Position numbers and translations under genes: made by a program. A stretch of 64,000 nucleotides of DNA from assembly GCA_963713605.1 (NCBI GenBank), contig CAVQMO010000001.1, positions 96,001 to 160,000 of the forward strand, written 5' to 3'. The notes beneath the pieces are model-generated. The model did not search any database, was not told where the DNA came from, and saw nothing but the letters and a program-made list of their open reading frames with translations. Source of the DNA: an uncultured Nitrososphaerales archaeon. GTDB taxonomy: Archaea; Thermoproteota; Nitrososphaeria; Nitrososphaerales; Nitrososphaeraceae. Positions 4,076 to 49,050 of this stretch are shown one piece after another. Position 1 is the stretch's first letter. Every line of letters begins with the position of its first letter.

Positions 4076-4369
4076 ATGCCAATGGCCATAATCCCAGATA
4101 TAGACGAACAGAGATGTATTGGTTGTGCTCTCTGCGTAGAGATTTGTACAGCTTTAGGTCCAGATGTGCTCAGAGTAAAGCCAGTAGAAGGATGGAAAAG
4201 AGGAAAAGCATTCATCTTTTATCCTGAAAGATGCATATCAGATGGCGCATGCTTAGGGGTATGTCCTACCCATGCGATATTCTGGATGAGACCTATGGAA
4301 TACACTTCAGGACAACCGATTCCTCTACACAAGAATGGTGTGTTTGAGAAAGGTTGGGAAGAAGGTTAG
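4076..4369 (+). CDS. 4Fe-4S dicluster ferredoxin
   Basis: CIGCALCVEIC and CISDGACLGVCP motifs; T-rich terminator-like tract ~4405-4423. Confidence 0.92.
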   Translation: MPMAIIPDIDEQRCIGCALCVEICTALGPDVLRVKPVEGWKRGKAFIFYPERCISDGACLGVCPTHAIFWMRPMEYTSGQPIPLHKNGVFEKGWEEG

Positions 4370-27435: not shown

Positions 27436-28865
27436 TGTCTACATACAGTACTAAAATTGGATTGGAAATCCATTGTCAACTTACTGGTTTAAGAAGCAAG
27501 CTATTTTGTTCATGCCATTGCAATTATCGTGAATACAGTCCCAATGAGAATATCTGTCCGACGTGCACAGGGCTTCCGGGCACCCTACCTCTATTGAATC
27601 AGACAGCAATAGAAATAGCGGCAATGGTTTGCATGGCTTTAAGGTGTACTATTCCAAATAATATACTATTCTACAGAAAGAACTATTTCTATTTAGATCT
27701 ACCTAAGAATTTTCAACTTACCCAATATAATGCCCATGGAATTACCAGCATTGGTGTAGATGGGTTGCTGGGATATGGACAAGGAGAAACTAGAATACGT
27801 AGAGTTCAGCTCGAAGAGGACCCTGGTAGATTATCATATATGAATGGAAGTTCAGGCTCACTAATCGACTACAACCGGGCTGGAATACCCCTTGTGGAAA
27901 TCGTGACCGAGCCAGATTTTCATGACCCAAAAGATGTGAGATTATTTCTGAATAAATTAGCATCGATAGTTGAACACCTGGGAGTTTGTGATACGAGCCT
28001 TGAAGGAGCAGTTAGATGCGACGCGAATATTTCCATAGGTGATTCAAGAAGAGTTGAAATAAAAAACGTCTCTTCCTTTGGAGATGTCGAAAAGGCTCTC
28101 AAGTTTGAAATGACCAGGCAAAAAGCTATGCTTAATTATGAAATGGAAATCAGAGGTGAAACCAGACATTGGGACGAACAAAGAAAAATAACCAAGCAGT
28201 CAAGGACCAAGGAAGAGGAACAAGACTACAGATACTTTTACGAGCCAGATATACCATCAATTCAGATCGATGAGGATTATTTGAAGGAATTACACTCAAA
28301 AATGCCTGAGCTTCCAGATGAACGGAAAGAACGGTTTATCAATTATTATAAACTTACGGAGCACGTCTCCAAAGTATTAATAGATCATAAAGATCTCGCA
28401 GATTACTTCGAGGAGTCAGTCAAGATCTATTTTGCCCCCAAAGAAATAGCAAATATTATCGTGACTGACCTTATGAGCTATGCAGATGACAATTCTAAGA
28501 AACTTGGATCTCCAATAAGGAACATAAAGATGACACCCAAACAATTAGCTGAAATAGCTCGAATGATAAAGGAAGGGATCGTTAATAGAAAAACTGCTAA
28601 GCAAATCCTATATGAAGCTGTATTATCAGGCAAATTAATAACTCCAAGTGAAAATGACACGAATTTTAGAAAGATCAACGATGAGGGCCTAATATTGCGT
28701 TCTATTGAAAATGTCTTTGAGGCAGAGTCCATAGCAGTGCTTGATGCAAGAAAAAATCCTAATGTATCCAACTATCTGCTCGGAAAGGTGATGGAACTCA
28801 CTAAGGGCAGAGTTGATCCAGGGCGTGCATTAAGCCTAATCAACAAAAAGTTGTTGGAATACTAA
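27432..28865 (+). CDS. gatB: Asp/Glu-tRNA amidotransferase subunit B
   Basis: IGLEIHCQL, RKNYFYLDLPK, DYNRAGIPLVEIVTEPD, DYRYFYEPD. Confidence 0.97.
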   Translation: MMSTYSTKIGLEIHCQLTGLRSKLFCSCHCNYREYSPNENICPTCTGLPGTLPLLNQTAIEIAAMVCMALRCTIPNNILFYRKNYFYLDLPKNFQLTQYNAHGITSIGVDGLLGYGQGETRIRRVQLEEDPGRLSYMNGSSGSLIDYNRAGIPLVEIVTEPDFHDPKDVRLFLNKLASIVEHLGVCDTSLEGAVRCDANISIGDSRRVEIKNVSSFGDVEKALKFEMTRQKAMLNYEMEIRGETRHWDEQRKITKQSRTKEEEQDYRYFYEPDIPSIQIDEDYLKELHSKMPELPDERKERFINYYKLTEHVSKVLIDHKDLADYFEESVKIYFAPKEIANIIVTDLMSYADDNSKKLGSPIRNIKMTPKQLAEIARMIKEGIVNRKTAKQILYEAVLSGKLITPSENDTNFRKINDEGLILRSIENVFEAESIAVLDARKNPNVSNYLLGKVMELTKGRVDPGRALSLINKKLLEY

Positions 28866-35383: not shown

Positions 35384-37812
35384 CTATGACGATCTCATTC
35401 CACCCTTCTTTCTTTGTAGATCCGCCATAGATTTTCGTGCACTTTCGATAGCTTTCTGTCTTCGGGGCTTCAAAATCAGTATATAAAGGGAGCCTATCAA
35501 GTATATGGAAAGGAGAACAATTTGAGCAATCACAGATTCTAGTGTGGGATGGATACCTGTCATGGTTGCAAGGTTAATATCCAACCTAGGAACTATGCCG
35601 ACCAGTGGAGTAGTAGATACTATTCCTAATTCTTGCAATTCTCTGACTGCATTGCCCATGAATGCTATGGACATGTATGCTCCTATCCCCATGGTTAAGG
35701 CAAAGAGTACCCTTAAGGGCAACCTTCTGCCAAGCCTGTTGATTAAAATAGCAACACCAATGATCACCGCTAGTCCTATGACCATACCTGCAATAACATA
35801 CAACTCCATGTACTTTGCAAAGGATAGCATGGCTTGGTAAAACAAGACGGTTTCAAAACCTTCCCTATAGACCGTGAAAAACGCCAGAGCAACAAATACA
35901 ATTACACTACCCGTTGTAGTGGCCTTCCAGACCTTTGCTTTAACAAATTCGATCCATTTCTTGGTTTCGATCTTGTTTAGTACCCAGAAGCTCACCCAAA
36001 AAAGAACTGCTACAGCTGAAAGTCCAGCCACTGCCTCTATCAATTCCCTATTCGCTCCAGAAATCTCAATTACATACTGTGCCACAAACCAAGTTGCAGC
36101 TGTAGCAACTACTGCAATTAGAATCCCGTAGTAGACATGCTTTTTGAAGCGTGCATTTCTTGACGCTTGCAGATACGTTAGAATAGCGCCTATTATTAAG
36201 GCTGATTCAAGACCTTCTCTGAATATAATTGAAAAGGAAGTCGAGAATGCAATTGCAGGTGCCACAATTCCCACCCCGGACACAAGTCTCTCTGATTCGT
36301 CTAAGCCTCTTCTAATTTCTATGGTCTTTGCTTCGACTTCCTGTAGTGGTACATGCTCGCTGAAGTAGGTTCCTTAATTCAGCAAATCTAATCTCCATCT
36401 CAAGTGTAAAATCGGGGTCTATTGGCCTTAGCGGAATTTCAACGACTTCATAACTATCTAGATATGCCGACCGTGCGGCCAAAAGTGCACCTTCGTAATT
36501 CTTATTCTCATATATTCTAAGCATCTCACTTAGTTTCAATCTTATCCGGTCTATGTTGTTTCTCACAGATTCCTTTGCTGGATCATCTGCTTCTCCCATC
36601 TGCCGGAATTCGCCAGTATAAGTACCGAAGCCTTGCCTCAATCCTTGAATATTTGCAAGTGAAGACCCGCCGCTAGCTGTTGTATTAATATTCAAATTCG
36701 AACGGTATTCAGGATCATTTTTGAGCAAATCCTCAGCTTGGTCCAATTTGCCTAGGATAGCTGTGATAAAACCACTAATCCCTTGTGGAGATTGTTCCTC
36801 CCTTATCATTTGACGAAGTTCTTCCCTCATCTCTATTTCGATATCGAGCATCAAGTCGGGATCGTGTTTTTCGATAGGCGCTTCCAGATATTCGAAGTTA
36901 TCTAGATATGCTTTGATTGCAGTTGCGTCTGCAGCTTTATAGTCGCCCTCGTTCACCGACACAATAGTACTGTTAAGCAGATCCCTTGTAGTAGAAAAGT
37001 ATTTTGCCTGTTCTGATGCGCTCTCACTGCCACCACTTAAAGTTAGTTCCTCTGTAAAGTCTCGTTCAATTGCAGAAGCAACACTTACTACAGTATCAAA
37101 TGGAGTATCATTGTTCATACTTACCTGTATCTGTTGATAAAAAGATCTAATTTCATCTCGTCTCCTCTCATCAACGGAGTCCGCAACCCTTTCAAAATCT
37201 GCAAGTGACGTGTTTACCAACCCTAATGAGTTCTGAAGATTAAATGTGCTAGATTCATCCTGGATAGCTGAAGCGTTAGCTGAGCTTGTAGGATTGAATT
37301 GCGTCTTCCAGAAGCACAGCTGAGGCCTGCAGGAAAAATCCCTTATCTTCAGCAAAGCCTTGTCCTGCAATTGAGTTCGAGAGGCCGTTCAATAGGTTGT
37401 TTATCGTTACGACATCAGATTCTATATTGGAATTTGCGACTTCTGGGCTATTTGAAGCTCGAATCTTAATTGGAAAATCAGTAAGTAGTGCTTCAAGACT
37501 TTTTGAAGATGCTGGGTCTGTTTGACTTAATAAGGGCCTAATTACTGGGAAGGTAACCGAATGAGGAATATAGGCATGCTGGAATGCAGATTCGAGGTCA
37601 CCGCTGTTTAAACTATATTGCGTGAGGTTAAGTTGAGTTCCAATCCTTTCTAGATTGATGAAAACTATAAGTGGATCTGCCGATTGTTGGTTTTCGGCTG
37701 GTAGCTGCGCGATTCCATCATCGATAAAAAATGAGGAAATAACTAAGTTACTAGCAGCAAGAATCAAAAACGCTAAAAACAACGATTCTGTTAAGCGTCT
37801 GCTCAGACTCAT
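35384..37812 (-). CDS. FTR1-family iron permease with large extracellular N-terminal region (two frameshifts)
   Basis: REGLE and REGFE motifs in TM domain 35384..36283; signal helix and AYLD-motif domains in 36312..37812. Confidence 0.9.
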
Positions 37813-37815
37813 CTA

Positions 37816-37829
37816 TTAGGCTAACCTAA
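37816..37829. promoter_or_regulatory. DtxR/IdeR-like operator at FTR1 start
   Basis: TTAGGCTAACCTAA, 4-17 nt upstream of the FTR1 ATG. Confidence 0.75.
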
Positions 37830-37901
37830 GACTCACAAATAAATAGATTTCTTTTATTAGACATCGATTGGGTCATAGATGAAAATAATACTGTTTAAAT
37901 A

Positions 37902-37929
37902 TTAGGATTTCCTAATTAGGAAAGTCTAA
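37902..37929. promoter_or_regulatory. Tandem TTAG-N6-CTAA operators between TATA and ATG
   Basis: TTTAAATA (37894-37901), then TTAGGATTTCCTAA and TTAGGAAAGTCTAA, ATG at 37932. Confidence 0.75.
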
Positions 37930-37931
37930 CA

Positions 37932-38126
37932 ATGGAAAAGGCTTTCAAATTTCTCGAAAGTATAAATAAGAATGAAAAAATTGAAAAAGTTGAAGAAATA
38001 GATTTAACGACCTATATTTGTGACAATACTGATGGGATTTTGGATCCTTTAGACCAGATTACTTATGGATTGAACGAGGTTCAGGTTACGTACGGCAATG
38101 TGGTGGTCTTGAAAGATGCACCTTGA
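37932..38126 (+). CDS. Small acidic hypothetical protein
   Basis: 64 aa ORF directly after TATA and tandem operators. Confidence 0.65.
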   Translation: MEKAFKFLESINKNEKIEKVEEIDLTTYICDNTDGILDPLDQITYGLNEVQVTYGNVVVLKDAP

Positions 38127-38132
38127 TGAAAA

Positions 38133-38393
38133 ATGTCTCCGCCAAACTCTTCGGATAAAAATCCTATTGAGGATGACAAGGCCGATGAGGTGAAGGCGTT
38201 AATATCTAGATATATGCTTTTGAAAATTGAACAAAGAAAGATCGAGAATAAGTTGAATGAGGTAATAAAATACTATGACACCGAATCTCTTAGAATTATC
38301 TTCGAACCAATAGGTGACTCTATAATGGGAACCATTGGATTGGAACTTCCTCATAGGAAGAACGAAAAGGATATATCGCAGAATCAAACTTAA
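38133..38393 (+). CDS. Small hypothetical protein
   Basis: 86 aa ORF 6 nt after the preceding ORF, probable operon. Confidence 0.6.
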   Translation: MSPPNSSDKNPIEDDKADEVKALISRYMLLKIEQRKIENKLNEVIKYYDTESLRIIFEPIGDSIMGTIGLELPHRKNEKDISQNQT

Positions 38394-38630
38394 ATGCAGG
38401 CATATGCTGTTTATATTTAAAGGCTGATTCCGTTTTGAAGGCTAATTCCAAGTTGCAGCTGAATGCAGTTTCATTTCTTTGAATATATTAAATATCTTAT
38501 ATAAATCTGAGATTAAGGCTTAGAAAGATCATCAATTTTGTGATATCAGCAGGCGAAAGTGTAGAACGAATATTTTTAATATTATTTGGAATTATTTTGC
38601 GGTTTCTACAAATCTATCTACGCTTTATTA

Positions 38631-38644
38631 TTAGTTCGTACTAA
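38631..38644. promoter_or_regulatory. TTAG-N6-CTAA site upstream of the ferritin-gene TATA box
   Basis: TTAGTTCGTACTAA; TATA-like TTATTAAATA at 38656-38665; ATG 38697. Confidence 0.6.
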
Positions 38645-38696
38645 ATTGTTGAATATTATTAAATAGGAGTATATCTATATAGATATTGATTATAAA

Positions 38697-39182
38697 ATGG
38701 GCAAAATGGGAAAAGAAATAGCTGGCTCTGGTGTAGAAGGCACAATAGAGATGCTAAAGACTGCATATGCTGGAGAGTTGTCGGCGTTTCATTATTTCTG
38801 GTACGTTTCTCAGAATATAGAGGGACTAGGCGTGCTGGAACAAAAGTTTTTTGAAGAACGAGCAGATGAAGAACTGGGACACGCTAAAAAAGTCTCCGTT
38901 AGACTAATGCAGCTAGGAACTAATGCCAAAGACGACCCTGCCTTGTGGGAACAAGAAAGTGGATTGGGCAAACTACAACCTTCAAGGTATTTGACACTTC
39001 GAAGTGCTTTAGAGAAAGCTTTGGAATTCGAAAGGAGCGTTATCAAATTATACAATGATCTTGCGAATAACGTTAAGGATAAAGACCACGGTACCTACCA
39101 TCTGGCACTAGACTTACTTGATGCAGAGCTGGAGGACGAACAGACAATTGAGGACATACTCGCAAAGCTGGAAATCCATTGA
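38697..39182 (+). CDS. Ferritin-like protein (bacterioferritin/DPS-like)
   Basis: AYAGELSA..Y, DEELGHA..RL.QLG, ALEFE..I..Y, D..TY.L...L..E diiron-type motifs. Confidence 0.88.
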   Translation: MGKMGKEIAGSGVEGTIEMLKTAYAGELSAFHYFWYVSQNIEGLGVLEQKFFEERADEELGHAKKVSVRLMQLGTNAKDDPALWEQESGLGKLQPSRYLTLRSALEKALEFERSVIKLYNDLANNVKDKDHGTYHLALDLLDAELEDEQTIEDILAKLEIH

Positions 39183-39287
39183 GTACTTCTGCAATATTTT
39201 TTGACACTTTTTTCTTTCATTTCCTCAAATTAATTGTAAAGTAATTGAAGCTCTCAACCTTATTGTAAATAATCTTGTAAAAGTGGC

Positions 39288-40543
39288 TTAGCCCCATACT
39301 TTCTCCCTGAAAGTCCATTTCTTATTAAGTATAAAATTACTTATTGAAGCTGCAGCTACTGCACAAATGAGCGATAGATTATAAGATATTCCAGATTCAA
39401 CCATAAGATAGACTAACGTAAGCTGTATAGAAATCCCTAAAGAGCTGAAAATAAGAAACAACCCGTATTGTTTCAAAGTGTAAAGCACTGAAAACTTTTT
39501 GTCTTCAAACGTCCAAATCTTATTCAAGAGGAAATTAGTGGTTATTGAGACAGCTATTCCTATTGCGGTAGCCTGAACATACCAAAAATTAGCCAAGGTT
39601 CCATTAGAGAGTAGAAAAGAAACCAAGAAATTGATTACTAGTCCGCTGGCTCCTACAGTGAAGAACCTAGCTGCTTTTGACAGGAATAATACAGAATCTT
39701 CTGTGTTCTGTACCTCTCCAATCTTTTTTGCGATTTTCTTCCGTACTTGTATAGACTCCAAACTGCCTTAGTATAATCCACTAAGACCCTGAGATCCAGT
39801 TTACTATTCCCATATTTTCTCACAGTAAATGTATATGGAATCTCTTTTACGGTAACGTAACTCTGTTTCTTAACCAATATTTCAAGCAAAATCTTGAACC
39901 CTTGGGTATTGAAATCGATGTCCTTTAAAACATGACGTGGTAAAGCAAAAAATCCGGACATTGGGTCTCGAACTTCCTTTACGTTGAGGCCATACCTTGC
40001 AATTCCAGTCGCACCAAAACTAATTAAAAGTCTCTTTAATGGTACACCTACAATAGTGCCTCCCTTTGCGTACCTTGAACCAATCACGACACAATTAGAT
40101 TCGTTCTTGAGTTCACTTATGATGCGAGGTATAAGTTGAGGAGGGTGCGAAAAGTCAGCATCCATTACTAGTATGTTCTTCCCTCTCGAGGTCTTGATAC
40201 CATCAAGCACTGCACACATCAAGCCATCACGTCTCTGCCTATGAATAACCTTGATTGTCGGTGGGCGACTGTCGTTATGGCTTACGTCAAAATCACTCTC
40301 TAGTACAAACTTATCAACTAGAGAACCAGTCCCATCTGGAGAATTATCATCAATTATCAAAATTTCCGTCCTAATATCTTGAGGGATCTTGCTCGTAATT
40401 TCTCTTACTAGCCTGATGATATTTTCGCTTTCGTTATAGGTAGGTATAACAATTGACAAGAAAGTAGAGGATGTTTCTTCGATATGAGATGTCTCATTTT
40501 CTTGATGAGTTTGAAATAACTCAGCTGCTCTTTGATCCCTCAA
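39288..40543 (-). CDS. GT2 polyprenol-phosphate glycosyltransferase fused to GtrA domain (frameshift near 39720)
   Basis: SIVIPTYNE, IDDNSPDGT, MDADFSHPP, DPMSGFF; GtrA ARFFTVGASG..NFLLNKIWTF. Confidence 0.88.
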
Positions 40544-40676
40544 TGGTCGAATATGTTATAAAATATTATATATATATACTCCCGTTTGATTCTCAATAGA
40601 GAAAAACAAAATATGATAAATTGACGATCCTATTATAAGGTCAGAAAACTAAGATGTACATTTATCGATCTAAAAT

Positions 40677-41839
40677 ATGTTTAAATGTTTCAATAAAATT
40701 CGAATAAATTATAATATTTTGGCATCTGTTTTGATTCTAATGATGTTTTCGATGACATACTTAGGGCTTTCAATCCAAAATTATGCTTTGGCGTCGTTAC
40801 CTTGCGAAATTAGAAATGAAATGAAATCAGAGAATAGTGAAATTAACTTCTACTCATTAGTTCCGACCAATATTTCAGTAATGCCAGAATCATTACCTGC
40901 GGGTAACTTGTATCTTTCTCCAATTTTTTCTAACGGAACTGCCACGTATACCAGAAACCTGACCGATGAATTATTTCCCTTTCAACTAGATCGCATTGGA
41001 TCTCCAATGTCTCGTCCAACTACCGAAGTTGCTGCTCCGTTCTTGGTGATACTATTTACATAATATGTGGTTATGATGAGGGTGGTTGATATGGTAGAAT
41101 TGTACATTGCAACGTCTGATTCTTGGGGGAAGGGATTGCTCAACTACCTCTTCCGCTGCACCATACTTCTGCGGCTTCATATCAAGGTAAGATCTATGTC
41201 GCTGGAGGCTATACGGGAGATTGGCGCGAGCGACAGATTGTTTACTTATGATCCAACAACCAATGAATGGACTCAAGGTAAACCTATGCCTACTCCAAGA
41301 GGTTATCCTACTGCAAATTTCGTAAATGGTACCCTATGTCGTAGGAGGCGATGGCGGAGCTACTAATGAAAGGTCGTTGAATGCTACTTAATCATTTGAT
41401 CCTGTCACGAACAAATGGACTAGTCACGCCTCTATGCCCACAGCTAGGCATCACGCAGCATTCGCCGTAGTGGATGGTAAATTGTATGTAGTTGGAGGGA
41501 GAATTGGAGAGGAATTCAACAATGTAGATCTCGCTGAGGTGTATGACCCTGTTTTAGACAGTTGGACTACAAATCTTGAACCGAAGCCTTCAAAAAGAAG
41601 CGGAATAGGTGCGGTTTCATTAAATGGAGCAATCTACGTCCTGGGTGGAGAACTGACTCCAACCACTTTTCGATAATAACGAAACATACGATCCAGACAG
41701 GCATAAAGTCATTTTATTTTTTGCCGATAGCGACACGTCTAGCGATAACAAGCTTTTCATTTGCTCGGAGTGTAGAGCAAGGTGTAAATCTGAAGATTTG
41801 TTGAATGAACATATGTATGAAGAACATGGAAAGCAATAA
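40677..41839 (+). pseudogene. Kelch-repeat secreted protein, fragmented; last frame reads into a C2H2 finger
   Basis: Kelch fragments YDPTTNEW..MPTPR, MPTARHH..KLYVVGG, AIYVLGG in several frames; last frame FDNNETYDP...CSECRARCKSEDLLNEHMYEEHGKQ*. Confidence 0.65.
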
Positions 41840-42005
41840 TTAACGCTGATATGTTCCTCATATTTCATCCATTGCAGTTTGAATCTGTGTGTCCTTTTAT
41901 CCCATAAATCGACTGAATAGATCAGGCGGTCCAAATCATATGTCTTTAATTAGGTATTTTAATTGCGAAAGTCTCTCCAAAGAGAATCATAAACAAGGAT
42001 AAATA

Positions 42006-42033
42006 TTAGCCTAACCTAATTAGTATTAACTAA
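42006..42033. promoter_or_regulatory. Tandem TTAG-N6-CTAA operators
   Basis: TTAGCCTAACCTAA and TTAGTATTAACTAA after GATAAATA; no sizeable ORF downstream. Confidence 0.75.
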
Positions 42034-42034
42034 T

Positions 42035-42175
42035 ACGGTGAACAACTAACTATTGGAATGTCTGGGATTGGCATCTATGGAAATTCCAATAGAAGAACGC
42101 TGCAAACGCCAGGTCAGAAAATACACCTCCTACTCGATTGGATTATAACTACAACCTAACCCAATCGAGTAGGTC
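42035..42175 (+). ncRNA. Candidate iron-regulated small RNA (two hairpins)
   Basis: Inverted repeats 42050-42059/42083-42092 and 42129-42141/42161-42173; diverged copy at ~48035-48140. Confidence 0.4.
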
Positions 42176-42522
42176 TCCAACCAACTTGGTATGAACCAAA
42201 AGCATAGTTATTATCAAATATGAAGGGTATCTAGAAGTCTTAACATTCAATCATGTCGCATTGCAAGAGCCTACGTGTATCTCAGACCATCACTCAGAAA
42301 ATGAGCATATTGAACATTTGACACAAAAAGGTTCAATATATGCGATCTTGTTTGCGGTAAAGCTTATGAGGCTATCCACAATTAGTTGCCCCAATATTAT
42401 TCCCAAAGACAATAATTGCTCCTAAGCGAATACTCTAAAAAATGGACAAGAAAGAATGAAGTGGTTATTGGAAAGATAGGCGTGTGGCGTATCAACCGAA
42501 CAGTTGCTGTGCAGTAATCAAA

Positions 42523-42747
42523 TTACCACCAACTGTATTTACCAATTGTTGCAAGAGGTACTCTGGTTTCGATTGCATTTTGAATATCTTCTCTTATCAT
42601 TATTTCAGTTGCTTTCATCAAAGCTGGATTTAGTTGACCCAACGGAGCCTCTAGGAACTCGTAATTATCCAAATAAGCAATTTGTGCTAATTCCACTGCA
42701 CCAGTGAAATTCTGATTACCGTATCCTACTACTGCTTGATTTAACAA
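42523..42747 (-). pseudogene. Fragment of the AYLD-motif helical domain found in the FTR1 N-terminus
   Basis: AYLDNYEFLEAPL..E.MIRED versus AYLDNFEYLEAPI..E.EMREE in FTR1. Confidence 0.6.
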
Positions 42748-42824
42748 GCTCTGAATCGTAGAGATTAGTTCTAGTGGTTCGCTAGTTGAAAAGATAGTTT
42801 ACTTAATAGAATTTTTGATTGCCT

Positions 42825-43140
42825 CTATTTTCTAACGTGAACAGCGAGCCCATTTTCATTGAGACATGCCTCGATTGCTTTTATCTTGCTTCTATAATAG
42901 AGCACCTTCTTTCCATTATCATCTATAGATGCCCTCTCCACAGACAGAATCCCAGCTTTTACACAATCTACCTATCTTCTTGTAGGTTGAACTCAATGGT
43001 AGCTTATTCTCCGTTGAGATCTGAAGCACCGTCTTTGCTGAGTACATAGTCGATGTAATTATTTTATAAGTAATCATTTCTGCGACTTCTCTTAACAACA
43101 ATAATGAACTATTTTCTCCGTAATCAGTTGAAAGGCTCAT
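42825..43140 (-). CDS. ArsR-like winged-helix transcriptional regulator (frameshift near 42955)
   Basis: KTVLQISTENKLPLSSTYKKIGRL, continued by GILSVERASIDDNGKKVLYYRSKI..* in another frame. Confidence 0.7.
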
Positions 43141-43146
43141 TTCCGA

Positions 43147-43174
43147 TTAGACTAACCTAATTAGTGTAGCCTAA
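43147..43174. promoter_or_regulatory. Tandem TTAG-N6-CTAA operators in the divergent HTH/dehydrogenase promoter
   Basis: TTAGACTAACCTAA and TTAGTGTAGCCTAA; minus-strand ATTTAAATA at 43183-43175. Confidence 0.75.
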
Positions 43175-43181
43175 TATTTAA

Positions 43182-44562
43182 ATGCTATCCATTAGGCGAA
43201 CAATACTAATAATTAATGATCTCAAAGGTTTTCATCTATCTTCATTACCACAACCAACCAATAATTCTTCACCCATGCAAAAAATGCCAAGTCTGAGGGA
43301 TCCGAATCTAAGAGTTGAACTCGTTGCGAGTGGGCTAAAATATCCAACTGCTATGGCATTCGTAGGAAATGATGACATTCTTGTGCTAGAAAAAAATAAT
43401 GACACCATACGAAGGATTGTGAATGGCAAATTGTTCGATAAGCTTGTCTCTTGGATATCAATGTCGCAAATAAGGTAGAAAGAGGATTGCTAGGTATTGC
43501 AGTTGCAAATCAGACATTGGGAAATGATATGTTTAACAAGACAGTCTATCATTTTTATACTCAGTCTACTGAGGATGGTAACGACCTGTGCCCGGGCGCA
43601 ACTAGTTGTGGCATACAAATCCTATAGGTAATAGAGTGTATCGATACGAATGGACTGGTAGCGAGTTTGTAAGTATGAGTTTGATTTTAGATTTGCTAGT
43701 TGGACCAGGAGCAGACCATAATGGAGGTGTATTGAAAAAAGGACCTGTTGGCTCTTGTAGGAGATGGTGACAGTTGCTGGGAGTTTTGGTGTGCTGGACC
43801 TTTTGAAACAAGTACCGTGAACTCTGAATCATCCAATGTTGTTACAGGAACTCCCCCCGGACGGAAGAAGTGGAATTCTGAGGATAACACCATTTGGTGA
43901 ACCCGTACTGGAGGGAAAAAATGGTACCACTGGTGTTCTAGCCGATCATAGTCCTCTTAACAAATACTATGCATTTGGCATAAGAAATGGTTTTGGAATT
44001 GCGTTCGATCCGGTTACTAGTAAAGCTCTAGGATACCGAAAATGGACCTGGATATGGTGATGAAATCAACCTTGTGGAACCTGGATTCAATAGCGAATGG
44101 TTAAGGGTACAAGGATGGTGGCCAGTTACTACCTCAAACCCATTGCCTGCTGCTAGGGGATATTTTGCGGATGATATGGTAACGGTACCAGCAATTTTAG
44201 AAACCTTCGCAGACAAGGGAAAATATAGTAGTCCTGAATTTGCTTGGAATATGTCTGTCGGCGTAACAGCCTTAGGCTCTGGAAATGCACTAGGAGAAGA
44301 ATATGAAAATAATATGTTCGTAGCAGATTATAACAATGACTATTTGTATGATTTCGAATTAAGCGAGGACAGAACAAAGTTGGACCTTGAGGGTGAGCTT
44401 GTAGATAAGACTGCAAACGATAATGGGGAACTTGAAAAGGTGGCATTAGGGCAGGGATTTGGGGTTATTACCGATAATAAGGAAGGACCAGACGGGTATC
44501 TATATTTGCTGTCGCACATCCACGGAAACATTTACCGGATAGTTCCAAATTTGCCCACATAA
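43182..44562 (+). pseudogene. PQQ-dependent glucose/sorbosone dehydrogenase family protein, multiple frameshifts
   Basis: GLKYPTAMAF, ERGLLGIA, HNGG, YYAFGIRNGFGIAFDP, EGPDGYLY..GNIYRI in different frames. Confidence 0.75.
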
Positions 44563-44714
44563 TTCAAACATGCTTCGCATGTTGCTGTGCAATCCAAAAT
44601 TAGTATTCTCAGCTGCCATACAAATATTTATGTGTCGCATCGATATCTCCTTTCCCCGTGAATGATTTTCTATGGGTTGAGAATCATTAACAGCCTATTA
44701 TGACTCGGTATACT

Positions 44715-47305
44715 TTACTTCTTGATTACAGCAAGTACATCTTTTGAGGATGATTTTTGAACTTCATCCCTGATGACTTTAGAAAGATTCTCTGATGATG
44801 TGAGATTCGAAAAATCAATTAGACGAATATCATCCAAAAGGTGTACCTGTGGTGGAAGATCCCAGTGCTTGTCTTTTGTATTTTTGCTGTATCGGAACCT
44901 TTCATTTTTATCATCATTATATCCCTCTCTGTGATCAATTGAGCTTCCTAGCAAAGCAAGCAAGTCAGTCAAGACTTCCTGTTTGGTACCTTTGATAATG
45001 TTTACACCTGCTAAGGAAAGTCTTACCCGTCCAAACTTATCGAGAATCAATATAGAAATTCGCATTTTCTGAGAACGAGGGATAAACCCAAATAAATTCT
45101 TGACTTTTTTTTCACATTCAAATATGTGGTAATTCTTCAAATTAAAATCAACTCGTTTTACGGTCACATTCCTATTCGCTTCCATTATGTCGTCACCCGG
45201 GGCTTTTGAATTCGGGCTCGTCGCTGTCCCAAATAAATTCTTAGCGATGTCTTCAGCTTCATGTATGCTAATTTCCCTAGAATTCGATGTGCCTATGTCT
45301 AGGCTCATGTTACCTGTTGCGGTTACTCGCAGGAGAGATCGATCGCTAACATATTCTGATTGTACGGTAATAGACTCCGGTAGAGCGCCTTTAGCTAATG
45401 CTAAATCTTTCACTTCATCCATCATCATTGAGACCTCATCCGGTTTGGGATTCACATCAACTGTTTTCTCAAGTTCTTCATGAATCATAGCTGCCAGCTA
45501 CACCGATTGAAGATATAACCTCCGCATGTTGTGCTTTTTTATAATTCATATTAAGTGTCTTGGCTAGATGAGGAACAAGCACTGATGCGCCTCCGCCTCC
45601 TCCTACTAATATAAAATTACTGTTAGTAGTATTCCATTCTTTATTTCCAAAGCGGTTTTTATTCCCTGTCCTATTCAGTAAAAACCCTCTTGGTCTATTG
45701 TAGGTTAAATTGTATTCCTTCAACATAGGATTCATGATTTGCAAAACCTTGTCGGTCGCGATATCAAGTATCTGGTTGGCAGCTTTTTCCATCGAAGTAC
45801 CTATTTCTCTGGCAAGAATTGATAAGGCGATCTTAGCAGATTCGGAATTGCCTTTGGCATAATCGTCATCAGAGATCAAACCAAGCGCATTAGCGGCACA
45901 TGTAGTAGTTATGGCAAATAGCCTTTCTCTCAAATCCCCGTCTTTTTCTGATCCACTTCTGCCTCTAATTACAGCGTATACCATGCTTTGATCTTCGACA
46001 TTACTGTTGGACTCATTTACACTAGTTGAATGTTTGAGAACAGAGCCATCTTCTATCTCCGGCCGAAATTGTATTATCGTTCCTCCATCGAGCTGGGAAG
46101 GCTCTGCAAAACAGGAATACTCCAAGCCAGCTATGTGCGCGGATCGAGGACCCACATCTACTATTTTTCGCTTATCTTTTGACAACATCACTATAGAACC
46201 TCCAGCGACATTCACAACTCTTACATCCAATGATCTAATACATGTTGGATGTTGAACTATGGTTGCGTAGTTGACTTTGGGTTTACCATCTTTTATTACG
46301 CACACATTTGTCGAAGTCCCTCCAACCTCTACAAAAACCCCATTTAGTACCCTTAAGTGAAGAAGAGCCCCCGCTACACTTGCAGCAGGGCCTGAAAGAA
46401 CAGTTATAATGGGTTTTATCTCAAACGCACTGATATCTGTAACTCCTCCATCACCTTTCATTACCTTTATTGGTATATTCTTGGGAATTCCCAGCTTTTC
46501 TCTTACGGCATATTCAACAAACCTTGCTGTACTGGCAGCTTTGGGTAGTATACTTGCATTAATCACTGCAGTCATAGTTCGGATCTCAAGACCGTAAATC
46601 CCGGTCAGATCATGTGCTGCAATTATTGGAACCTTCTTTTTGTCACTTCCCGTATTACTTGACCTTGCAATATTTTCTACGAAATCTTCGTTACTGGGAT
46701 CGTCTACACCATATGCTTCGCTGATTACAAGTACCTCAGCTCCTTCGCGCACTAATTCGCAAATTGAAGATCTCACACTTTCTTCGCTCAAATAGGAGGA
46801 AGTGTCCAAGTACCTATAACAAGTCTTAATAGACTTTTTCCCGTTACCATCGAGTAGTATATCTTTTATATGTGTGCGTTTAATGATATTGGACTTCTCT
46901 AAGCTAACACCCATTCCTAAGATTCCCACTTTAGCTGTATCACCTTCGAGCAGGGCATTCACAGCCTGAGTAGTACGTATGAGATATGAGTTCCACTTCA
47001 GAATTTTGTATATGAAATTCATTCATGACATCTGATAGTGTTTGTAAAATGCCTGTTGAAACACCTTGATCTGATTTGTGGGTGGTAGGAAGAGTAGACT
47101 GTCCTAGAATACTCCCTGTGGCCATATCGATTGCAACTGCTTTGGTGAACGTGCCCCCGACATCGATACCAACTCTTATCCGCCTTTTCTTAGAATCTGG
47201 ATTGGTCCGATAATTGGCATGAGGAGAAATGTCGGCATTCTGGCTATGATCATCAGATTCTGCAATCTTATTTTGGTTCAGATATTCACGTTGTTCGCCA
47301 GACAT
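44715..47305 (-). CDS. Hydantoinase/oxoprolinase family ATP-dependent enzyme (two frameshifts)
   Basis: RVGIDVGGTFTKAV, TTQAVNALLEG, LSGPAASVAGA, EVGGTSTN, GGGGGA. Confidence 0.85.
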
Positions 47306-47323
47306 CCCTTATATACTCTCGAA

Positions 47324-47337
47324 TTAGTGTCACCTAA
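47324..47337. promoter_or_regulatory. TTAG-N6-CTAA operator of the hydantoinase-like gene
   Basis: TTAGTGTCACCTAA between minus-strand TTTAAATAAA (47362-47353) and ATG at 47305. Confidence 0.7.
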
Positions 47338-47625
47338 TTATCAGGATTTACCTTTATTTAAACCAATGATTGAGAACCGGAATATCATTCTTTAGGGTGT
47401 TGCATAATCTGAATAAACTAACAATTTATCCTTTCTAACTCGCGGCGGGCTATCAATTAGGGAAGGCCAATTTCTTTGCTATCCTAATGATGCTGAGGGT
47501 CTAGTTCTGCTACAATAGGCTCCAGTGGTATCCAATAATTGACAACACTTTATCACGAATGAAAATGTGAAATTATGGCCAGTGAAATGTTCCGACCTAG
47601 AAAAGATTGTTAGATAAAACATTGC

Positions 47626-47817
47626 ATGAGAACGCCTTATACCTATATAAGACCCATTGCGCACATAAGACGAACGATATTGAACAAGCCCAACATACGC
47701 AGTGATAGCGAAACGTCTAGAGATAACATGATTTTCATTTGCACCGAATGCAATGCTAGGTGTAGATCTGAAGAATTATTGAAGGAACATACGTATGAGG
47801 AACATGGAAAGCAATAA
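47626..47817 (+). CDS. Small C2H2 zinc-finger protein
   Basis: FICTECNARCRSEELLKEHTYEEH; paralogous to 41726-41839. Confidence 0.65.
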   Translation: MRTPYTYIRPIAHIRRTILNKPNIRSDSETSRDNMIFICTECNARCRSEELLKEHTYEEHGKQ

Positions 47818-48200
47818 TCAACTTTAACAATATAGCTCAAGGATTACAGTATGGATATCTGTCTACTTTTTGCCTTAGCCCGACTAAGTGAGACAACTAA
47901 ACCCATGGTTATTCGAAGGTGCATGAGTTTGGAAAAGTTCTCCTAAAGAGAATCATAAACAAAGATAAGTTAAATGTATTAGCCTCATCCTCTGATAAAG
48001 AGAATTACCCTCACCTAATTAGGTGTGGCTAATACATTTAACAATAACTATTGGAACTTATGGAAACGCTGATAGAAAGTCATATCATGCGGGATTGAGA
48101 ATACCTCCTTCTCGATTGGAATTTGACCACCGCCATCGAATTAAATGACGACATCTATTTCTTTACGTGAACTACGAGTCCATTTTCATTTAGACATGCC
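47700..48200. repeat. Diverged duplicate of the 41.7-42.9 kb module
   Basis: Shared C2H2 coding segment, AAAGAGAATCATAAACAA, operators, CTATTGGAA, ACCTCCTnCTCGATTGGA and HTH 3' end (48155-48200 vs 42825-42870). Confidence 0.8.
48005..48032. promoter_or_regulatory. Tandem operators (one degenerate)
   Basis: TTACCCTCACCTAA and TTAGGTGTGGCTAA. Confidence 0.65.
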
Positions 48201-48414
48201 TGATGTAATTAGGGGGGGACCAAATCTTGGATTGTCCGTTTCGTGGGAAATTGAAATCTAAAATGTAAATAAGATGGATTACGTATCGAAGAAAGGTTTC
48301 CACCGAAGATTTATCTACCTGCTATTTGTTAGTGAAGGTTTCAACACGTATAAATAATTGGAATATGATCCTGCATGAATTATATTCCTTTTCAGCATAA
48401 TCATAGATCCGAGA

Positions 48415-48579
48415 TTGGTCTCAAAGAATAAGCAGAAATTTGTGTCTAAGGAAGAGGAAGAATACCTAAAAAAGATTGCGGAGATATGTGAGAGTGTCAT
48501 TTGTAAGTCTTGTGGCCGTTTTAACATCAGACATTGCAGATTGTGCCGCAACTGTGGGAGCGAGCTCCGACTCGATTAA
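48415..48579 (+). CDS. Small zinc-ribbon protein (54 aa, not in ORF track)
   Basis: TTG start; MVSKNKQKFVSKEEEEYLKKIAEICESVICKSCGRFNIRHCRLCRNCGSELRLD*. Confidence 0.6.
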   Translation: MVSKNKQKFVSKEEEEYLKKIAEICESVICKSCGRFNIRHCRLCRNCGSELRLD

Positions 48580-49050
48580 AAGGGCCAAATTGTTAATTGA
48601 CGAATGATTGCATCACAAAATCCTGACCAGCGGTTCGAAACCTTTCTTCAAAGTATCGAAAGCTAATTCACACAACCCCCAATAAAAGACCGGTTGATAA
48701 ATATTCCTTTAAATGATATCTGTTGACCTAGAACAGATAAAGAATCCGTCAAATATCCTACAGCTCCATAGCCATATCTTGTTTATAATATGGTCTAGCA
48801 AAATCAAGAATATCAATTTTGAAGCTAGTCGACTCTAGTTAATATATGATTTAATTGCAGCGGATCAACTACAGAATTCAATTCAATGACTGCAACTTGA
48901 AGTACAAATACTACCATTCTATCGAACCATATTTGGGCAGATATTATGGGGTCATACTTAGAAATTATAGTATGATTCAGTTTTGTGCGCAAATCTTCTT
49001 GCTAAAAATAATTCAGTTCTCTGAGGGGCCAAAGACCAGTACATAATTAT

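Follow-up and report, generated by a model that had tools for sequence, protein, structure and literature searches.

What do the short palindromes of the form TTAG-N6-CTAA, gathered in one part of an archaeal contig, control? The window, that is the whole stretch of 64,000 nucleotides (nt) analyzed here, comes from an uncultured Nitrososphaerales archaeon (GenBank assembly GCA_963713605.1, contig CAVQMO010000001.1, positions 96,001 to 160,000 of the forward strand). An initial annotation of this DNA had read the palindromes as operators of a DtxR/IdeR-type iron regulon comprising the iron permease gene FTR1, a ferritin gene and several unassigned genes. This list missed the main target, a non-coding element complementary to the starts of ferredoxin genes. 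From the sequences compared, we judge it likely that Archaea possess a DtxR-repressed regulon with an iron-sparing small RNA (sRNA) of the RyhB/MrsI kind that silences ferredoxins. What was computed comprises the motif with its conservation and position, the Fe-type ligands of the regulator, the conserved non-coding element, and the complementarity and covariation that link this element to its targets. Throughout, G denotes genomes (G000 being the source genome, 4.1 Mb), C contigs, L loci, g genera and f families.

A tandem operator, made of two abutting 14-bp palindromes, starts at position 42006. No open reading frame (ORF) lies behind it; instead we found a non-coding element whose conservation extends over three or more families of Nitrososphaerales. 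The element and its predicted targets (lengths in amino acids, aa) are the following:

41982 to 42033, plus strand: predicted sRNA promoter, with a GAGAAT word at 41982, a TATA-like box at 41999-42005 and the tandem operator at 42006-42033
42030 to 42175, plus strand: predicted sRNA with putative ends, a stem (42050-42059/42083-42092) around the seed, a second conserved word (42109-42117) and a terminal stem (42129-42141/42161-42173)
42060 to 42077, plus strand: bipartite seed, complementary to the ferredoxin start codon and first codons (Met-Pro ... Pro-Asp)
4076 to 4369, plus strand: 97-aa 4Fe-4S ferredoxin, predicted target
G000 C1:257109, minus strand, and C3:403590, plus strand: the other two predicted ferredoxin targets

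The seed behind the 42006 tandem reads TCTGG-N-TGGCAT(CT). One half pairs with AG-AUG-CCA and the other with Pro-Asp codons, which stand at differing distances in two ferredoxin families; in nearly all duplexes the AUG is paired, as are the bases immediately 5' of it. The source genome carries a second seed-bearing copy behind a tandem on another contig (C10:358760-360300), and the RNA copy at 48033 has lost its seed. When 10,567 candidate starts were ranked, both seeds placed the same 97-aa ferredoxin first (-32.9 and -38.6 kcal/mol), and the summed energy of both put the three ferredoxins at ranks 1, 2 and 4. Among 3,572 first-ATG starts, the three ranked 1, 3 and 6 with copy one and 1, 4 and 7 with copy two, whereas 12 shuffles used as controls reached rank 28 at best and the seedless copy ranked the ferredoxins 838-925. 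The C10 copy is also divergent from a secreted four-helix-bundle gene that has a single operator of its own.

Is the element kept where chance would not keep it? In loci retrieved solely for their operator or DtxR, each of the 17 seed matches (13 distinct places) lies at most 90 nt behind an operator. The pattern of tandem plus seed occurs in 25 stretches of 185,579 species genomes, 24 of them titled Nitrososphaerales or Nitrosopumilales and one Thermoproteota (the titles include Nitrososphaera, Nitrosopolaris, Nitrosomirales and Nitrosopumilus), and in 51 stretches of metagenomes. Across 58 distinct elements, two of which (L307 and L349) look like chance and were kept in the counts, positions outside the search pattern could be compared: the first half-site TTAG and the TATA-like box are each present in 51, and a G before the seed (51/58) and CT after it (48/58) both extend the complementarity. 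An order-wide scan returned the pattern in 35 of 401 genomes, with 6 control matches; 9 of the 30 loci fetched afterwards (L139-L142, L144, L145, L156, L157 and L161) look like chance and were excluded from later counts. Further members, in genera g3, g6, g11, g16 and g18, came from a profile search. In 23 homologues of the own-genus type, 96% of the cells of the two stems are paired and 5 pairs show a two-sided change, a covariation reached by none of 500 shuffles, a figure inflated by the relatedness of the sequences. No match at E ≤ 1 was obtained when positions 37000-49000 of the window were scanned against Rfam 15, thus none to the RyhB, PrrF or MrsI families.

Two further words accompany the element. 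At 42109-42130 the RNA holds a second conserved word (RGTCA, an A-run and CACC(TCC)) that resembles an anti-Shine-Dalgarno sequence; no credible target for it was found among 20,559 starts or in five g14 genomes. Upstream of the tandem, by 23-26 nt, about half of the RNA promoters carry a GAGAAT/AGAATC word (41982-41988 in the window). It lies within 45 nt in 31 of 62 RNA promoters (at exactly 24 nt in 23 of them), compared with 3 of 46 seedless tandem promoters, and is possibly the site of a second regulator. A C/D-box RNA on the opposite strand was considered and dropped by eye, with no conserved D box and no promoter there.

The seeds also vary along with the first codons of their presumed targets. 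From the RNAs, and before the genes were fetched, a Met-Thr ferredoxin start was expected in G034 and a CCG proline codon in G067; both were found. G018 agrees with G034, its Met-Thr start being matched by the seed, and G168 and G226 have an added seed that matches the Met-Thr start. The AG before the ATG and the CT of the seed are both lost in genus g12, the G254 seed matches the Gly codon of its own Met-Pro-Val-Gly ferredoxin paralog, and G381 keeps one pair only as G-U. These cases are a handful of events and not a statistic. When 25 seeds were set against their own ferredoxins, at most 2 of 300 shuffles reached the score, in a test that is partly circular because the seeds were chosen by pattern; the weight is placed on the rankings and on the codon changes predicted in advance.

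The same duplexes bear on the direction of the effect. An RNA that stabilizes ferredoxin mRNAs or redirects their translation, with no repression although operator and RNA are real, is unlikely, although archaeal sRNA154 is described as stabilizing some targets and blocking others (PMC5867862). In Nitrosopumilus maritimus, the most abundant ferredoxin is reported to be lowered under iron limitation and most others to stay level (PMC12974425), the latter counting in favor of such an RNA. Nearly all duplexes cover the AUG and the bases just upstream, however, so that initiation should be blocked, and more Fe-S protein during iron shortage would be the less economical outcome.

Which genes share its operator? 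Around the element, the locus contains the following features:

35384 to 37812, minus strand: FTR1-family iron permease fused to N-terminal four-helix-bundle repeats (Pfam FTR1, E 2.8e-17)
37816 to 37829: single operator, separated by 3 nt from the start codon of FTR1, predicted repressing position, same place in L064-L067
37894 to 37901 and 37902 to 37929, plus strand: TATA-like box and abutting 28-bp tandem operator, with the orf64 ATG 2 nt further
37932 to 38393, plus strand: orf64 and orf86 (64 and 86 aa) behind the tandem, conserved in relatives
38631 to 38644: weak single operator that precedes the TATA-like box of ferritin (38659-38665) by 14 nt and might activate from there
38697 to 39182, plus strand: ferritin-like (DPS-like) protein (Pfam Ferritin, E 1.2e-18)
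42544 to 42789, minus strand: matched part of a stand-alone secreted four-helix-bundle gene, with the domain seen N-terminally in FTR1; broken in the window, 152 aa long in relatives
42828 to 43140, minus strand: small winged-helix (wHTH) regulator gene (104 aa in relatives), with a frameshift near 42955
43147 to 43174 and 43175 to 43182, minus strand: tandem operator and abutting TATA-like box, 6 nt before the wHTH start
44715 to 47337, minus strand: frameshifted gene of the hydantoinase/oxoprolinase family; its single operator (47324-47337) lies between TATA-like box and ATG
47626 to 48130, plus strand: duplicated segment with a Cys/His zinc-finger-like small ORF, a one-mismatch tandem (48005-48032) and the seedless RNA copy

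FTR1 is a single 803-aa ORF in relatives, and the window copy is broken by two frameshifts (the L064 and L066 ORFs map onto it in three frames); its operator at 37816 has the top matrix score in the genome. The orf64 and orf86 genes are kept together behind an operator, G014 included. Neither matches a family above cut-off, and an atlas search with the 64-aa protein was blank. The ferritin-like protein matches NCBIfam Arch_DPS at E 3.9e-15, below the family cut-off. The four-helix-bundle domain occurs alone or fused to FTR1, nearly always behind an operator. It is repeated (42544-42789 and 36312-37812 in the window; L005, L033, L071 and L073) and has a conserved AYLD..E motif. Its structural model reaches a predicted local distance difference test score (pLDDT) of about 98 over residues 61-150. 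The domain has no match in Pfam or NCBIfam, a fold search returned no PDB match at E ≤ 0.001, and an atlas search gave unnamed archaeal clusters only. At 40800-41700 the window has a broken kelch-repeat gene where G003, G005 and G009 have a second Fe-type dtxR gene before a zinc-finger ORF; comparison with these relatives found no dtxR remnant there. Small shares were present in eight RNA runs, four of which were compared with the locus. Contigs from these four, of relatives, cover orf64/86, ferritin and parts of the FTR1, GT2, bundle and hydantoinase genes. They do not cover 41972-42438, but such contigs cannot show absence, so they neither support nor refute the RNA.

How far does the regulon extend? 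All ten exact palindromes reported by the initial annotation are present at their positions, together with its near match at 48005, which differs by one mismatch. The window as a whole holds 12 matches, compared with a mean of 1.66 (largest 5) over 100 shuffles; the two beyond the ten, at 27693 and 45391, lie within coding sequence and look like chance occurrences. Of the four abutting 28-bp tandems described, three are exact and the fourth, at 48005, carries the mismatch; moreover, the 42006 and 48005 tandems are not independent because both belong to one duplicated segment of about 500 bp. The described placement of sites between a TATA-like box and a start codon needs correction at three loci: the 42006 and 48005 tandems precede non-coding DNA, and the 38631 site is upstream of the ferritin box. 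In the proposed genome-wide scan, the single 14-mer was near background: 106 were found versus 82 expected, and alternative spacer lengths gave 65-112, so the motif is barely enriched. A weight matrix built from 40 half-sites of other genera found fewer matches in the source genome than its reversed control at all four thresholds. A genome-wide operator network was thus rejected. The exact tandem occurs 4 times in the 4.1-Mb genome, 3 times in the window and once at C10:360115, where it adjoins a paralogous copy of the FTR1 N-terminal domain; a separate single site lies at the start of this paralog. The operators thus form a small, compact regulon. An iron regulon of DtxR/IdeR type is supported by motif, DtxR genes and Fe-type ligands, while its description as a network overstated its size and overlooked the duplication.

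In relatives, the tandem keeps both its sequence and its place. An exact copy is present in 32 of 61 genomes, the source genome included (26 of 36 family members), and the reversed control gave none. All 53 distinct tandems (50 loci) have a TATA-like hexamer at most 22 nt away on one side, mostly abutting, by a permissive test. The commonest gene behind a tandem is the small wHTH gene, which starts 0-6 nt after 18 of the 53; seven stand before orf64 and 12 before the non-coding element, which is always found on a TATA side; FTR1, ZIP and four-helix-bundle genes are among those that follow the remainder. Overlapping sites with a 5-bp offset were seen once among all sites of at least 11 bits (20 loci and the window region). 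Conservation at the FTR1 and ferritin promoters, which the initial annotation had proposed to check, was found at both: the FTR1 site is kept in L064-L067, and the ferritin site has the same place in all six same-genus loci compared and is intact in four. Judged by its position, an operator that fills the DNA between TATA box and start is a repressing one. Two genes, ferritin (38631) and a Dps gene in G039, have the operator upstream of the TATA-like box, where activation as by TroR is possible by analogy. The G039 case consists of one tandem (L079:2787-2872) located 3' of the TATA-like box of the RNA and 5' of the box of the divergent Dps gene; this single site could serve both for repression of the RNA and for activation of Dps. 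Tandems of families f9 and f4 stand, in addition, before presumably TFB/cyclin-like ORFs and a PhoU-like regulator (L072:4721-5413, L076:5864-6550, L078:4873-5523 and L077:5200-6228).

Which protein would bind these sites? The IdeR site was redefined in a structural paper as the 14-bp sequence TTAGGNNNNCCTAA for one dimer (PMC8464063). The window 14-mer equals this single-dimer consensus and fits the motif derived by chromatin immunoprecipitation for Haloferax TroR (PMC10783522), which bears out the likeness to DtxR/IdeR operators noted earlier. The search for the regulator gene suggested at that stage found three DtxR genes in the source genome (on C3, C5 and C15), all outside the window, where none had been seen. 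The likeliest regulator is the following:

G000 C3:411488-411967: C3 DtxR gene, 159 aa

Aligned to MntR and SloR, the C3 protein has Met and Cys at the positions of MntR Asp8 and Glu99, and by alignment it shows the Fe-type primary site (Met10, Cys102, Glu105 and His106). The Met/Cys pair is named as a determinant of Fe selectivity (PMC10317159), and 32 of 41 surveyed DtxR genes are of this type. The C15 paralog scores as MntR. The third gene (G000 C5:104326-104866) is MntR-like by eye and interrupted by a stop. A C-terminal Cys/His motif is present in the C3 protein, which reaches 54.5 bits against the NCBIfam IdeR equivalog, below its cut-off of 290. If only genomes with a completeness of 90% or more are counted, 22 of the 32 that have a close C3-type DtxR contain tandems, as against 0 of the 9 that have none, although kin are not independent. 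A C3-type paralog lies within the homologous locus in G003, G005, G006, G009 and G013 and behind operator-led genes in G014, G025, G029 and G054, and single sites stand directly before dtxR genes in G025, G027, G043, G051, G052 and G054. The palindromes are probably sites of an iron-sensing DtxR-family repressor in ammonia-oxidising archaea (AOA).

The frequency of the wHTH gene behind tandems raises another candidate, namely that this small protein binds the operator and regulates itself, DtxR being a bystander. Operators accompany its gene with much greater regularity than they do dtxR. We nevertheless regard this as quite unlikely: in eight tandem-bearing genomes at least 95% complete (G016, G030, G031, G039, G044, G054, G056 and G059) the wHTH matches are distant (E ≥ 1e-13) and away from tandems, the same eight have a close C3-type DtxR, and the operator word is that of a published DtxR-family motif. 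We find it just as improbable that a DtxR protein is the regulator but senses Zn, Mn or Co. ZIP genes lie behind tandems in L008, L010 and L015 and a ZnuA gene near one in L027, the ancillary site looks degenerate, a C-terminal Cys/His motif is present, and one target family is related to zinc-containing ferredoxins; on the other side, the Met/Cys primary site of the C3 protein speaks for Fe, FTR1 and ferritin/Dps are at the core of the regulon, and a separate MntR-type paralog exists. Least probable of all is that the element is no pairing RNA and represents an inverted scrap of a ferredoxin gene, an opposite-strand micro-ORF (Met-Pro-x-Pro-Asp) or a DNA site: the opposite strand in the window does read as a short ORF, several spacer lengths keep its frame and the complementarity would be accounted for if a gene fragment had been inverted, but seed spacers vary from 2 to 16 nt, those of 2, 5, 7, 8, 10 and 16 nt breaking the frame, which rules out a conserved antisense micro-ORF, while the seed strand is the one with the TATA-like box, the element persists from family to family as its flanks diverge, it tracks lineage-specific codon changes, keeps a G-U pair and has covarying stems, and a gene-scrap origin is compatible with a present function.

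Several observations weigh against an Fe-sensing DtxR repressor governing a ferredoxin-silencing RNA, among them the ZIP and ZnuA genes mentioned above. The C3 protein has no SH3 domain, and the ancillary-site histidines are apparently absent (Thr at the SloR His position). A strong site is found within 330 nt of none of the 32 Met/Cys-type dtxR genes and within 1.5 kb of two, so self-regulation is sporadic, and the matrix scan gave no operator for the C3 dtxR of the source genome. Among other Fe-S genes, SdhB-like and NuoI-like starts score near the mean and are no predicted targets. Own-genus ferredoxins are the best or tied partners only for most g1 copy-1 and g14 seeds, and not for those of g8, g17, f4, g12 and g1 copy 2; three g12 seeds fail to match the Met-Thr paralog. 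CCA bias, considered as a sign of selection, proved not diagnostic, being equally high at the paired prolines in g2 and f13 genomes without detected RNA. In the marine family of N. maritimus (f13), 13 of 201 genomes match the pattern and only G254 does so convincingly, with two copies; because f13 is mostly without a detectable copy, the iron-limited ferredoxin drop in N. maritimus needs another or a diverged mechanism. Finally, at least six genes of the window (35384-47305) are frameshifted relative to relatives, namely the FTR1, wHTH, bundle, GSDH-like, glycosyltransferase and hydantoinase genes, which suggests assembly indels or decay.

How might these parts work together? TTAG(G)-N4-(C)CTAA would bind one dimer of a DtxR-family regulator that Fe(II) activates, here most likely the C3 protein. 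With enough iron, the stretch from TATA box to transcript start would be covered by a single dimer, or by two neighboring ones on a 28-bp tandem, and the FTR1, helical-bundle, wHTH, orf64/86 and hydantoinase-like genes and the small RNA would be shut off; at the ferritin/Dps gene, where the site lies upstream of the TATA box, the effect of iron may be activation. When iron is scarce, uptake genes and the small RNA would be expressed. The RNA seed would then pair across the start codon of abundant 4Fe-4S ferredoxin mRNAs, leading to translation block or decay, and iron would be freed. In this scheme we infer which protein binds, with which metal, that the RNA is transcribed and in which direction it acts. 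More broadly, we lean towards the view that AOA independently evolved a DtxR-repressed, trans-acting, iron-sparing sRNA, with one bipartite seed that acts on the start codons of two unrelated ferredoxin families to silence both and that has evolved together with their first codons, under a promoter whose second word is perhaps bound by another regulator.

Does this system belong to a known kind? With IdeR/DtxR of Actinobacteria it shares the 14-bp one-dimer consensus, the Met/Cys primary site and iron-uptake and storage targets (PMC8464063, PMC10317159), as well as the Pro and Gln of the recognition helix (numbering by alignment). Two IdeR dimers overlap on a 19-bp site with a 5-bp offset, whereas the AOA sites abut as 14+14 bp; unlike actinobacterial IdeR, the AOA protein has 159 aa without SH3, archaeal TATA promoters and mostly leaderless targets. 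TroR of Haloferax volcanii is likewise an archaeal DtxR-family iron regulator with a fitting motif and multiple sites per promoter, and represses uptake while activating dpsA (PMC10783522). It differs by sites about 100 nt upstream and about 30 bp apart, by siderophore targets and by its phylum, and excerpts of the same paper mention no sRNA. The regulon appears from its sequence to work like IdeR and TroR, within the DtxR family, and not to be IdeR proper, because it lacks the SH3 domain and its dimers would abut instead of overlapping.

Iron-saving switches of this sort are known chiefly from bacteria. RyhB, PrrF and IsaR1 are Fur-controlled and bacterial, whereas the AOA RNA would be under a DtxR-family protein in Archaea. 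IsaR1 of cyanobacteria is an iron-repressor-controlled sRNA acting on the ferredoxin gene petF, and RyhB needs Hfq. RyhB in enterobacteria and PrrF in Pseudomonas are iron-repressor-controlled sRNAs that silence mRNAs of Fe and Fe-S proteins (PMC3516471). The mycobacterial MrsI comes with an IdeR site at the sRNA start and a seed in a hairpin loop, as in the AOA element, and pairs with 5' ends of iron-protein mRNAs to spare iron, as predicted here (PMC6016810). Its 6-nt seed pairs in the 5' untranslated region, whereas the AOA bipartite seed spans the AUG and first codons (PMC6016810 for MrsI). MrsI targets are broad, the AOA RNA is predicted to act on ferredoxins only, and the empty Rfam scan gives no sequence likeness. 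On sequence features, the AOA element combines a putative repressor site on its promoter, a structured, conserved, non-coding seed and complementarity to iron-protein starts.

In the open-access literature searched, we found no description of DtxR regulation in AOA (Leyn and Rodionov 2015 may list AOA sites) and none of an archaeal iron-sparing sRNA. Leyn and Rodionov 2015 covered Eury-, Cren- and Korarchaeota according to PMC10783522, and PMC7289023, in the passages covered, deals with haloarchaeal DtxR networks only. A 2018 review states that few archaeal trans-acting sRNAs have known targets and, in the passages covered, mentions iron once, for a cis-antisense RNA (PMC5867862). The regulon joins a known DtxR kind, and its new part would be an RNA of iron-sparing type in Archaea.

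If true, Archaea would have in this RNA their own equivalent of RyhB, one whose targets can be named and for which compensatory variants already exist in nature. A new iron-capture protein may be encoded by the secreted four-helix-bundle genes found behind the operator. Ammonia-oxidising archaea drive nitrification, and their high iron demand is tied to ferredoxins. For the ferredoxin drop of AOA under iron shortage, no regulator was found in the literature covered; our analysis offers a predicted regulator, operator, gene list and post-transcriptional switch, and the predicted RNA would readily serve to mark iron stress in metatranscriptomes of soils and sediments.

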